Assembly (NCBI GenBank): GCA_964016885.1
Contig: OZ024740.1
Location: forward strand, 305,102,001-305,166,000
DNA from: Eledone cirrhosa
Lineage: Eukaryota
Direction of reading: 5' to 3'
Length of the DNA: 64,000 nt
Shown here: piece after piece, positions 19,079 to 34,226 of the stretch
Layout: each line of letters opens with the position of its first letter
Numbering within the stretch: position 1 is the stretch's first letter
Notes under the pieces: model-generated
The model's input: only the letters and a program-made list of their open reading frames with translations
Told to the model about the DNA's origin: nothing
Databases searched by the model: none
Made by a program: the position numbers and the translations under genes

Positions 19079-19213
19079 CTACACTATGTTATGACTGCAC
19101 CAGTTGGAATCCTTACTGTGCCAATTCTGTTCATGCACCATTCCCTGAAGCTGTAGCAACTGTTGAGTGTAATATCACAAAAACATGTTTCATTCGCAAA
19201 GAAAAAGATGGAA
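19079..19213 (+). CDS. Two-domain Ly6/three-finger (Quiver-like) gene, exon encoding N-half of domain 1
   Basis: Polypyrimidine tract + TAG acceptor; reads TLCYDCTSWNPYCANSVHAPFPEAVATVECNITKTCFIRKEKDG; donor GTATAT; 135 nt, phase 1-1. Confidence 0.85.
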
Positions 19214-19313
19214 GTATATACCTGTTATAATATATCACTATATTCTTGTTATTTTTCACAATAATATCTGTATATTCACATATTATTTCAATTTATTTTA
19301 AAAAAAACATCTA

Positions 19314-19530
19314 CGAGGGGGAACTGAAAAATTCCTTGCTTTGGGTAAAAGAAAATACAGGAGGATCTGTTAATTATGATTTTATTCAACATATTCCCCT
19401 TTCAGATTCACACACTTATTGCATTGGACCTTCAATTTTTCTAAGCTCTGTAAAAAGAATTTGGAAGGTTGGGCCTCTAACCAGGCCTCTGTGATACTCT
19501 TAAAGCCAGGAACTTTTCACTACCCCCTCA
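19314..19530. mobile_element. Mariner-type MITE
   Basis: TA-CGAGGGGGAACTGAAAAATTCC ... GGAACTTTTCACTACCCCCTCA-TA. Confidence 0.8.
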
Positions 19531-22089
19531 TATATTGTAAATTTGTCAGCTTACTACATGATCTTGTCAACAATGTACCAACGCTATTTCCTTTTTCTTT
19601 CCTAATATTTATTTTAATTCTTAATGATTTAGCAGGAAATATCTAAAAAACAAAAGGCTTTGTTAGTTCAAATATTTATAGTATCTTTACTAATAGGTAG
19701 ATCATTGTGAATATTTTTACTATTAACCACTTGCAACCACCACATTGTGAATATACATTTTGTTAGCACTCTGGGACACATTTGCTTGATATATGTTCAA
19801 ACCATATCTCATTGAGGGAGTAATTGTGAGCAATCAGGATTATAGCAAATATATTTCCTATAACTTCATCAATATACATTAGAGTAAAGACTTTAAAGTT
19901 TTTTAATGTTGTGCAAACATAGTGCTGTTTTATATTTTTCAAAAATGTCTTGGTGATGTGATTTCATGTGGTACTGGACGTTAAGAATTTAATATATTCA
20001 AATTATAACTCACATCCAAAAGACATTCCAATTATGACATACCATAAAACACAAGCAATAGACTAACAAAATAATATTGTTAACAATTTAAATAGTTCTA
20101 TTTTTCTATTCCTCCAAATATATATTTCTTTATATCTCCTTAAAATTAGTAAGTGACTAAGCATTTCACATACCCTTAACATAATACTCAGGGAGATTCA
20201 ATGTGACCCGTATAACAAGGTTGACACTTTGAACTACACATACAATCCATTCATCGGGCTTTCAAACAGTTTCTGTTTACCCAATTTAATTTACAAGGTA
20301 TGGGTTAGCCCAAGGCTATGATAAATTACGTTTTCCCAAAATACTTTGCAGTGAGATTCAACCCGGGACCTAATGATTGTGAAGCAGACACATTAGCCAT
20401 TTGACCATGCTGTGTCCCCTTTTATTAAATATGCTGATATACAATTAAATATGCTGATATACAATTAACTAAAATAACCATACACAAACATACGCATATG
20501 CACACACACACAAACACACACCCACATACACATACACCCACATACACACACACGCACACAAACAAACACAGGCATATGCACACTTACAATGCATACACAA
20601 ACACAGGCAAATGCACACACACACACAAATACATATGAATACACACACATGCACACACACAAACACAAACACACACTTGCAGATGTCCTATGTGTCCCAC
20701 ATACACACAGCTCATTTTTTGATATATGATTCATGTTTCATAATATATGACTTTTGCAATATAGAAACTTTCATGTCACATATCTGTGTCATGGGTCTTG
20801 GGTCAGTTGACACTGTTGGCACCTCTCACTTTCAATGTCTTCTTCATATGTCATCATCATCATCTTTTTTTATGTCCGCTTTTCCCTGCTTGCAAGAATG
20901 GGACGGGAACTGATTCTGGCTTGATTTCTACAGCTGGATGTCCTTCCTAACACCAACCTCATTTACAGTGAGTACTGGGTGCTTTTTTGCCGTGGCACCT
21001 CCATGACCACTTTGCAGTGGAATCATAGGGACCTCATCCCTATCATCTCATTTCTACAGCTGAGTAAACTGGAGCAATGTGAAATAAAGTGTCTTGCTCA
21101 AGGAAACAACACATCACCTGGTCTGAGAATTGAACTCACAACCTTTCGATTGCAAGGCCAATGCTCTAACCACTAAGCCATGTGCTTCCACCTAATGTCA
21201 GCATTAATAACAAAAAATATTGATTTTATTGTCTGTAATATTGTATGGTTTACTCCCTTTTCTGTAACTCCTGAGGGAGTCGTAGGGGTGTCGTATTGAC
21301 ATACTTGTATGGTGTTTCTTGGGCATTTTAAGCCTGGCAGATCCCATCCCTCTCCAGGCCTGAATACGATTTCTTCCAGAGAAAGACAGAGAATGAGAAA
21401 GAGGAAGTGAGAAAGAGATTTAGAGGAAGAATAGACCCCAGTACTTGACTGATACTTTTTTTATTCAACTTGGAAAGAATGAAAGAATGACCTCGGTGGG
21501 ATTTGAAGTCAGAGTAGAGAGCCAGAACAAATACCACTAAGCATTCTACCTGATGTTCTAACAACTCAGTCAGTAATATAGTACAAGCTTACATAATGTC
21601 TTCGATAATGAAACTGCTAACGTCTATGTCATCATCATCATCATCATTCTTGTTTAATATCTGTTTCCCTGCTAGTAAAGGTTGGGTTGGTTGCCACAGC
21701 AAACTGTAGGGCTGATTCTCACTTACATATGTTCCTGCATTCAGCAGAGTGATAGCACCAACACTAGGAAGGTTTGTATGTCCTCAACAGAGCTGAAGAG
21801 ACATCCTGACCTTTTTTGTTTATTACAGTTTTTTCTGTAACTGCATGTCCTTCCTTTTACCAACCACTTTACAAAGTTCTCTTTCTTCTTTCTTTTTCTC
21901 TTTTTTTCTCTATATTTCCCTATTCTTTCTTTCCTTTTGTTTCCTTTTTTTTTTACTATTGCCATTATTATAGTTGTCATTATTATCATTATTATTGTTA
22001 CTGTAAATAATATCATGTTTAAATAAATATACTTTACAAAGTGTACTGAGAAATACACACACACATGCTCTATCCCACTTTGTTTCTCT

Positions 22090-22342
22090 CTCACACATGC
22101 ACACACACACACATGCACATGCATACACACACACCACACATACACACTACACACACATGCACACACACACACATGCACACACACACATGCACACACACAC
22201 ACCACACCACACACACATATGCACATACACACACACACACATGCACACACACACACACACACATGCACATACACACATGTACACACACACCACACACACA
22301 TACACACACACATGCATACACACACACACACACACATCACAC

Positions 22343-31358: not shown

Positions 31359-31715
31359 GTTTCTACTTTTTGGCACAAGGCCAGCAATTACCCAGTGCAT
31401 TACTGGTACTTTATTTTAAGATAAATGCAACTATAATAGTAATAATAATGATAATAATGATTTCTTTATTGGACACAAGGGCTGGCATCAAGAAAAACAT
31501 TACAGACGGCACAGGACGGTACAGGACGGTACGATGTGGGTTTTGGGCGTGTAAAGATTTTTATTATTTATATAAAAAAGAAAAAAAAGACATAGAAACA
31601 TATATATATAAACAATAAAAATGAAAATTGAAACAATGAAAAATTCAATAATAATGATAATAATAATAATAATGATGATGATGATGATGATTTAAATGAA
31701 ATGTTATTTTTGCAG

Positions 31716-31904
31716 TGACTTATCGAGGTTGTGCAGATGGTTGGAGAGGTAGTAGCATTAATCACCACTACGTTGGTTGTAAGAACCAAACAATATGGGG
31801 CAAAAGTGTTGAGTGGTGTTTCTGTTCTTCTCCTCTCTGCAACTCTGAGTCAATTCTTTCTTTACGGACGACTTACCCCCAGCTACATTCAAGGGATAAA
31901 TCAG
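31716..31904 (+). CDS. Ly6 gene, exon encoding C-half of domain 2
   Basis: TTTGCAG acceptor; VTYRGCADGW...VGCKNQ...EWCFCSSPLCNSES...; donor CAG|GTAATA; paralogous to 22437-22601. Confidence 0.9.
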
Positions 31905-34191
31905 GTAATACTTGTACAAATATTCAATCTCCTCCTCCTCTTCCTCCTCTTTCTCCTCCTCTTTCTCCTTCTTCTTCTTTTCTTCTTCTTCCTGAGAGTA
32001 GGAGCAGAGTCCTCAAACACTCTTTCCAGCGGGTCCTGTCAGAAGCAACTCTCTCCAACTGATTTGGCTGGATCCCCAAACGAGCTGAGCTCATGAATGT
32101 TATCCAACCATCTTGCTTGGGGTCTACCACTGGTTTTCCTGCCAGTTGGTTTTGTCTGTAAAATCTGTCATAAAATAACACCAAATTTCATTATTTTTTC
32201 TTTTAGTACACATTCATAATTTTTTACATAGAATGTCATGATATTATTTCAATAGGATATATACAAGTAAATGTGATCTATATATCTGGGGGTGTGTGGG
32301 GGTGTGAAGACACATACACACACCCACACTCAACCACATGCCACAACAATGGACACTGAAGTTTCCCCTCTGCAAATGTTTAAGGCAAGCCAACACATAC
32401 ATCTCTACCCCTATGTTGTTACCATCCCAATGCTTCTTTCTTGGTGGCTGCAGGGTCATCTTGCTCTGAAACAAGTTTGGCCACCTCATTTCAAGGTGGT
32501 ATGAGGGGTAGAGGGTAGAGGGTAGAGCTAAGGTGGGCATAGGTGTAGTGGGTAAGATAGGGTTACATGCTGGTTGTTGGAAGTGGTGGGGCTGAATAGA
32601 TAACAGCTTATACAGTCAGATCTGCCCATTTTTACCCCTTCCCCCCTCTCTATCCGGTACTTAGTTTTGTTTTTATCCCCTTTTTTCTTTTTCTTTTATA
32701 TTTCCATCAATGTTTGTAATGTTATTTATACAACTATGAATTGATTTATTGTCAGTAATTTTATTTCATAACATGGAATAAAATTGACGTGTTTATTGGA
32801 ACAATAAATCTCTGCTAATTATTTGAATGATATGGCAAAAGACTGAAACATTCTCATAAAAACAGCCAAAGTGTGAAGATGGAGAGGATGAAGGTGTCTG
32901 AGCTATCTAGGTGTTGGGAGAGGAGTGTGGTGTTGTCCAGTAATAGTGTCATAACTGAGGAGAGAGGGGGGAGAGAGAGAGAGAAAGAGAACAATTGTTA
33001 GTCATGGGAGATTATAGTGGAGAAGTTACAGCTGGGGGAAGGGATACATTGATAATGGATAAGGGTATTAATAAGAGTGGGGTTGGAGAGATTGTATGTA
33101 GTCAGACCAGGTGCTTCACCTAGCTACATGGTGGTGTTGTACCAGGGACACCAATAAGAGGTGATACCAATGTGAAAAGTTGGGGGAAATGGGATATAAA
33201 GGATCTTATATAAATGTAGGGAATATATTGTTGAAAATAAGCGTACAATGTTGAAAGTGGTTTTAAAAATTAAAGGATAAAATAATAAACAGGAAAAGAG
33301 AAACAAAGAGGAGGGACAAAAAATAACTTAATGAAAAAAAGGGGACAGAGGAAGTGAGGAGCAAACTCTACACCTATGACTAGACAGTATCTCTCAATTA
33401 TACCCTACAGACAAGATTGTGAATGTATTGACATGGAGGATAGCCAGTGACACCCACTGCATCAACCCCTCACAGGTTTCTTTCCTCAGGCAGGATGTAC
33501 TCCTTCTACTTTTGTGGAAGAATAGGTGTCAGGAGAGTTTCATTTCTGGAAAGTTCTATGGTTCCAGACTACGTAAAAGTTGGTCAATTAAATCTTGAGA
33601 TAGAATAATGGGAGAATCCAGGAGTTTACAGTCGAAAATAACACTTTCAAAACAAAGAGTAGACATGTCGATACATTTCGTTTATATTTTACCCCAAAAA
33701 ATATTCAATAAAGTCGAGTATAACCAACACAAAGAGGAAGCAGTCAGTCAAGTCCATGTATTTAGATGTCTTCTGCTCCTCTGCATTATGGGTGGCATCC
33801 CCTGGGTTTGTAGCCAAAGCAACTATTAATTAGTTTTGGGTGGAAAGGCTTTTGTTTGTGCCAGGATCAAAACTACTTTGATTTAAGCTTTGTGTCTTAT
33901 GCTTCTCAGACAGTGCAGAATTTTATATTCAATTATTGTTTGTTCACTCGTGTCAGATATAGGTCATATAGTGATTTTTCTTGCCAACGATTTAGCATGA
34001 CATGCGTTCTTCTGTTTTAAAGATAGCAAACCAATATGATGGAGATTTGTCTACTATTTCTTGCAGATTGAATAACTAAATAGAAACTCCCTCATTGTCT
34101 CAATGTATAACAAGCAAATCTTTATTAGAAGTAATATTGTGACTAGATTTGTGATAATTATTACATTAAATTGTTTTTCTATTATTTTCAG

Positions 34192-34226
34192 AGAACCAGG
34201 GAGCAAAAGAAAGCAAAGTGCAATGA
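34192..34226 (+). CDS. Ly6 gene, probable terminal coding exon
   Basis: TTTTCAG acceptor; phase 1 gives ENQGAKESKVQ-TGA; AATAAA near 35330. Confidence 0.6.

Follow-up and report, generated by a model that had tools for sequence, protein, structure and literature searches.

Quiver and SLURP proteins modulate nicotinic acetylcholine receptors and K+ channels, and modulators of this type are small, single-domain proteins. Proteins of the uPAR group are anchored by glycosylphosphatidylinositol (GPI) and have closely packed domains, and snake three-finger toxins carry an adjacent CC in their C-terminal motif. Three-finger domains as such are widespread and often co-opted, as described in the excerpted text of PMC4476152. 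Here we analyze a window of 64,000 nucleotides from the octopod Eledone cirrhosa (contig OZ024740.1, positions 305,102,001 to 305,166,000 of the forward strand), which holds a gene encoding two Quiver-type domains joined by a low-complexity linker. A sequence-only reading of this DNA had proposed a secreted cephalopod three-finger ligand or toxin-like precursor, whose domains would be released at basic sites. Our results indicate that the gene likely encodes an old extracellular mollusc protein and not an octopus toxin.

The window protein resembles Quiver/Sleepless (PF17064) in its 10-Cys domain, with a C-x-x-C start and a C-x-C-x4-C-N end. It differs in having two domains and a long linker, in passing the family cut-off on two summed domains, in the motifs RGCxDGW and WCFC that mark its own subfamily, and in having relatives fused to CBM14; the combination of a single domain with a C-terminal GPI signal that defines Quiver/Sleepless and Lynx proper is absent. 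One canonical QVR gene of the E. cirrhosa genome has a Cys spacing of 2,7,15,11,19,11,13,1,4. In a canonical Quiver-type gene (L004), a single open frame encodes the signal peptide, the domain and a hydrophobic tail; on a different contig, a near-identical copy (L005) breaks off ahead of the final cysteine-Asn and the tail. Identity to the multi-LU vertebrate proteins (uPAR, C4.4A/LYPD3, TEX101) and to SLURPs, which are single-domain, is 10-22%. Snake three-finger toxins (PF00087) share the fold and secretion with the window protein but are single domains of 60-75 aa, compared to its two of about 86 aa each; its C-terminal motif is C-x-C, and no gene expansion was seen.

The coding sequence spans 1275 nt in nine exons with a first intron of 18 kb, and splicing was assigned from the window sequence and the RefSeq model of the O. 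sinensis orthologue. Eight exons within 19079-34226 have AG/GT borders, matching phases (in order 1-1, 1-1, 1-1, 1-0, 0-1, 1-1, 1-1, 1-stop) and no internal stop, giving 395 full codons including the stop. A search upstream for a hydrophobic stretch followed by a phase-1 donor yielded a candidate for an additional first coding exon with an ATG, outside the span of the sequence-only reading. This exon matches residues 1-24 of O. sinensis XP_029634523.1 (62.5% identity, E 5.5e-5) as well as the N-terminus of Octopus proteins. Alternative signal-exon candidates, for example a donor at 14397, lay in simple repeats without an orthologue match and were rejected. The exons and the linker motif are listed below, with identities to O. 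sinensis.

1039..1108, + strand: exon 1, with the ATG and a predicted signal peptide; 23 codons plus 1 nt, phase-1 donor GTAGGA
19079..19213, + strand: exon 2, N-terminal half of domain 1 with Cys1-5; QVR E 0.026; 39/44 identical
22437..22601, + strand: exon 3, C-terminal half of domain 1 with Cys6-10 and the start of a predicted helix with KK; QVR E 0.011; 51/54 identical
24594..24632, + strand: exon 4, a short acidic linker exon; 8/12 identical
26211..26509, + strand: exon 5, linker with an acidic stretch, a Trp-rich motif and an Asn repeat; 60/99 identical
26303..26344, + strand: the Trp-rich linker motif W..WYxHxx[ST][DE]RP, common to gastropod orthologues
27534..27744, + strand: exon 6, low-complexity linker; 43/70 identical
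28327..28458, + strand: exon 7, N-terminal half of domain 2; 33/43 identical
31716..31904, + strand: exon 8, C-terminal half of domain 2 and hydrophilic tail; QVR E 0.003; 40/62 identical
34192..34226, + strand: exon 9, with the stop, hydrophilic and without a GPI signal; 6/10 identical; this ending also occurs in O. sinensis XP_029634523.1 and an O. bimaculoides model (P0083, P0088)

All nine exons are collinear with XP_029634523.1 (295/406 aligned residues identical), and because they align to it in order, the exon chain is not a product of chance; the last exon of that model is also the last exon in the window. Judged by sequence, borders, phases and this alignment confirm a real gene with the eight exons that had been proposed to splice in frame to about 400 aa, plus a ninth upstream that raises the total to 424 aa. 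Two of the three listed read sets, aligned over 26100-34400, have DNA-like intron coverage, with no splice joints among the rows shown, and are silent on expression.

Both domains carry 10 Cys in near-identical spacing (2,6,16,5,13,15,13,1,4 in domain 1 and 2,6,16,5,12,15,12,1,4 in domain 2), in keeping with the paralogous pair described earlier. In each domain, one phase-1 intron lies at the entry, three codons ahead of Cys1, and a second divides the domain three codons ahead of the RGC motif; these equivalent positions fit the internal exon-pair duplication that had been suspected. Ten Cys are found in 26/26 aligned domains, with all ten and the Asn of the CN end invariant. A structure model of moderate confidence predicts a three-finger fold for both domains, and the linker is predicted to be disordered. 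Single window exons score 16-19 bits against PF17064 (QVR), for which the curated cut-off is 27.3 bits; the orthologues from O. sinensis (44 bits over two stretches), Babylonia (31), Patella (34.5) and Haliotis (42.8) pass it. This result and the predicted fold support the Ly6/Quiver-type identity first assigned to the protein, and its Cys pattern ending in CN is that of the three-finger/Ly6-uPAR superfamily. A comparison with PF00087 (Toxin_TOLIP), suggested at the same time, returned no match for the O. sinensis orthologue (E 0.01) or for single window exons (E 5).

The protein is likely secreted without a membrane anchor, as the sequence-only reading had held. In addition to the signal peptide predicted in exon 1, a hydrophobicity scan, used in place of a dedicated GPI predictor, found no GPI signal: the best 12-residue Kyte-Doolittle mean in the C-terminal 30 residues is 0.17, which is hydrophilic, and exon 9 is also the last in the RefSeq model from O. 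sinensis. C-terminal hydrophobicity is <=1.0 in 16/17 family proteins, the exception being an O. vulgaris model fused to JKAMP. Two single-domain Ly6-type open frames from other places in the genome served as controls and had C-terminal scores of 3.4 and 2.69; two further genome loci, apparently truncated or partial, gave 0.66 and 1.37.

A profile search of 1.84 billion representative proteins returned 77 matches at E up to 0.001. Taxon names are known for 17 of the 21 matches that were looked up, and 47/77 fit the C-half pattern only, being mostly apparent single-exon fragments; a few, P0038, P0055 and P0075, are unrelated by Pfam. The named relatives come from octopods, seven gastropod genera (Patella, Haliotis, Littorina, Babylonia, Batillaria, Pomacea and Nucella), the brachiopod Lingula and the annelids Owenia and Capitella. 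The first to be found was a 713-aa Babylonia protein with a signal peptide, two domains, an acidic linker and a hydrophilic tail. Signal peptide, two domains and hydrophilic tail are all present in O. sinensis, Patella, Haliotis, Littorina and Babylonia, while the models from O. bimaculoides, Argonauta, Batillaria, Pomacea and Nucella are partial. The limpet, abalone, periwinkle, whelk and apple snail each have a one-to-one orthologue of this layout, so the view of the gene as a specifically cephalopod ligand or toxin is not supported. O. sinensis LOC115210196, O. bimaculoides LOC106878805, Haliotis LOC124147902, Patella LOC126808611 and Babylonia LOC143290913 are alike in architecture and Cys spacing, and the octopod genes have JKAMP as their downstream neighbour, as in the window. 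The gastropod proteins differ in their longer linkers and tails (534-746 aa in total). Orthologues are annotated as 'uncharacterized', and two UniRef names read 'Protein quiver'. An exon 3 search of the E. cirrhosa genome found this gene alone plus one match at E 0.97, which is a lower bound; word-based search missed the known relatives from Lingula and Owenia.

Domain 1 of the window has 52-57% identity with its gastropod counterpart and 35-42% with gastropod domain 2; for window domain 2 the values are 53-58% with the counterpart and 35-43% with gastropod domain 1. In a midpoint-rooted tree, which carries a long-branch warning, the eight domain-1 rows form a clade with 97/91 support; P0049, P0065 and the second domain of P0104 (pattern mismatch or broken) were left out, as were P0006, P0011 and P0033. 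Since same-position domains are closest across classes, sequence comparison places the domain duplication before the cephalopod-gastropod split. Over 8 mollusc rows, 36-37 columns per domain are invariant. We dropped absence from bivalves, heterobranchs and chitons as a clue, as 56/77 matches had no name look-up. The tails of the gastropod orthologues P0001, P0003, P0004 and P0010, otherwise variable, end in [YF][RK]A[LF]x..G, a motif absent in octopods and suggestive of a C-terminal amidation or sorting signal.

Linkers range from 167 to 376 residues. The RK and RRK of the window are GK and RTN in O. sinensis, and the KK, kept in four octopods, lies within the predicted helix after domain 1 (model residues 116-130) and is missing at the equivalent place in 3/4 gastropods (Patella, Haliotis and Babylonia). 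No R-x-K/R-R site occurs in 6/6 orthologue linkers. A minimal R-x-x-R (RGIR), which still speaks in favour of cleavage, is common to the window and both Octopus proteins but not Argonauta. The conserved dibasic or furin sites that flank the domains of prohormone-type precursors were not found, and release of the domains at basic sites loses its footing; the protein is likely uncleaved. Whole-linker local alignment of the window with Babylonia was no better than shuffles (52/300). The Trp-rich motif is near invariant among gastropods and forms the best-scoring segment in 5/5 gastropod linkers, with 2, 13, 30, 31 and 97 per 1000 shuffles reaching the score; it occurs twice in the relative P0063.

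Relatives outside the molluscs point towards the extracellular matrix. CBM14 (PF01607) was above the cut-off in 4/76 matches scanned (P0006 was left out), including 3 of 8 named non-mollusc ones: the proteins from Lingula and Owenia have two domains plus CBM14, and those from Capitella and one further relative have one. The domains of the three named CBM14 proteins (Lingula LOC106166306, Owenia CAH1788342.1 and Capitella ELT98540.1) cluster with the mollusc domains at 97/97, with four other Lingula and Owenia proteins falling outside that group. They belong to the same domain subfamily (31-44% identity) and share the hydrophilic C-terminus, and in Lingula and Owenia also the tandem arrangement, but the tree does not match their tandem domains one by one to mollusc domain 1 and domain 2, and the three proteins differ in possessing the peritrophin-A chitin-binding domain and in having no Trp-rich linker motif. 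Another Lingula relative, P0037 (XP_013391772.1), carries the matrix domains Reeler and TSP1 (12 copies), with the subfamily domain at its end, and its accession number is near that of the single-domain P0021.

Based on these domain fusions and the aromatic motifs, the reading we favour, with some reserve, is that the protein may be a secreted, uncleaved, two-headed adaptor in chitin-containing extracellular matrix such as radula, beak or cuticle. The two domains would bind two different partners, because the invariant residues particular to each have persisted since cephalopods and gastropods parted. The Trp-rich linker motif or aromatic loops would supply the chitin contact, as CBM14 would in Lingula, Owenia and Capitella, and the tissue would be chitin-secreting: radula sac, beak, sucker or gut cuticle. 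By analogy, insect Retroactive is a three-finger protein required for cuticle chitin in the excerpts of PMC3561106, and from its description there it is like the window protein in having 10 Cys and aromatic loops. The chiton radula protein RTMP1, likewise compared by description in the excerpted preprint, is chitin-binding with a conserved Trp-rich region (bioRxiv 10.1101/2024.11.02.621658). We regard with considerably more doubt the broader idea that a lophotrochozoan subfamily of secreted Quiver-type domains might be used as a module in building chitinous hard parts (radula, beak, chaetae, tubes). CBM14 would carry this module to chitin in annelids and brachiopods, a task that a new Trp-rich linker motif would have taken over in gastropods and cephalopods.

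Several observations weigh against a role in chitin matrix. CBM14 is absent from the mollusc proteins and from 5/8 named non-mollusc relatives, long branches meet in the tree behind the CBM14 grouping (a warning of the tool), and the Trp-rich motif is absent from the Lingula and Owenia proteins. The octopod-gastropod matches of that motif are individually weak, at up to 97/1000 shuffles. Retroactive, in the same excerpts of PMC3561106, is a single-domain, membrane-bound protein that acts on chitin indirectly, through Knickkopf trafficking. Among the 21/77 matches looked up by name, no full-length orthologue came from chitons or heterobranch snails, both of which have chitinous radulae. No supplement of the omics papers on radula, shell, tube and sclerite matched the family terms, though identifiers there may lack such names.

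Among the alternatives, it is possible though unlikely that the protein modulates cell-surface receptors or ion channels as a soluble, bivalent factor, like SLURP1/2 or shed Quiver/Lynx, in mollusc nervous or epithelial tissue. Its Quiver-family domains and predicted three-finger fold are consistent with such a function, as is the strong conservation expected of a fixed protein partner. However, the closest relatives contain matrix domains (CBM14, Reeler, TSP1), the long low-complexity linker and long Ser/Thr-rich gastropod tails are unlike the small modulators, and separate single-domain Quiver genes in the genome score higher on PF17064. It is improbable that the protein is secreted to trap or present a growth factor, whether of the TGF-beta/BMP family or another: identity is 12-18%, uPAR and C4.4A domains are tied within 1 Z unit, atlas scores are <0.9 and serve as leads only, and the structure model is of moderate confidence.

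Less probable again would be a membrane-tethered working form, either a GPI or transmembrane isoform or a read-through into downstream JKAMP. The O. vulgaris fusion model (CAI9722074.1) would fit this, as would intron read-through after exon 3, a moderately hydrophobic stretch with a score of 2.05. However, the annotations of O. sinensis, O. bimaculoides and Argonauta treat JKAMP as a gene of its own, which in the window begins 21.6 kb downstream, the tail is hydrophilic in all gastropod orthologues measured, and we did not accept the read-through as an isoform given that 243/1471 open intronic stretches are equally hydrophobic. Most improbable of all is a cephalopod venom or toxin-like precursor: secreted three-finger architecture, the KK in four octopods and RGIR in three would suit it, and slow evolution, which we dropped as a counterargument because venoms of old lineages, coleoids included, are under purifying selection in the excerpts of PMC4619613, is compatible with it, but the orthologues occur in grazing gastropods, a single copy was found and the cleavage sites are not conserved.

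Elsewhere in the window, JKAMP (JNK1/MAPK8-associated membrane protein) occupies 55874-63227 (+) and continues past its end, with four exons that are 84-96% identical to the Octopus protein. Its intron 1 contains a 4.2 kb element at 57134-61341, bounded by direct repeats (253/308 columns identical) and with a GC-rich interior, that by eye looks like a decayed long terminal repeat retrotransposon. Stretches resembling decayed long interspersed nuclear elements of RTE type were seen by eye at about 10580-12100 (+), 35940-38900 (+) and 44000-46700 (-). The first intron of the two-domain gene holds a stretch like a decayed Tc1/mariner transposase (about 12300-13100 (+), by eye) and, at 3317-4381, a tandem repeat of 26 copies of a 40-bp unit with 88% matches.

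Searches of the literature for the gene or its orthologues, including six locus identifiers, found no paper, with most subscription papers, such as octopus saliva proteomes, outside the search. The excerpted text of PMC13425148 and PMC6351634 holds nothing on the gene, and neither do the supplements of PMC13425148, PMC9263180, PMC8476170, PMC9712504, PMC12607849 and PMC11871041 (one scanned PDF unread in three sets). The domain superfamily was already known to be very common, and several mollusc genomes already carried a model of the gene with no function attached. The new points are the conserved secreted two-domain form, the Trp-rich linker motif and the CBM14 fusions in the nearest relatives. 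The gene is not evidence for cephalopod three-finger toxins. If it encodes a chitin-matrix protein, that protein would be a shared component for the assembly of radula, beak and chaeta across three phyla. The broader idea of a module for chitinous hard parts would, if true, mean that a fold met chiefly in receptors, channel modulators and toxins has been put to structural use without an anchor.

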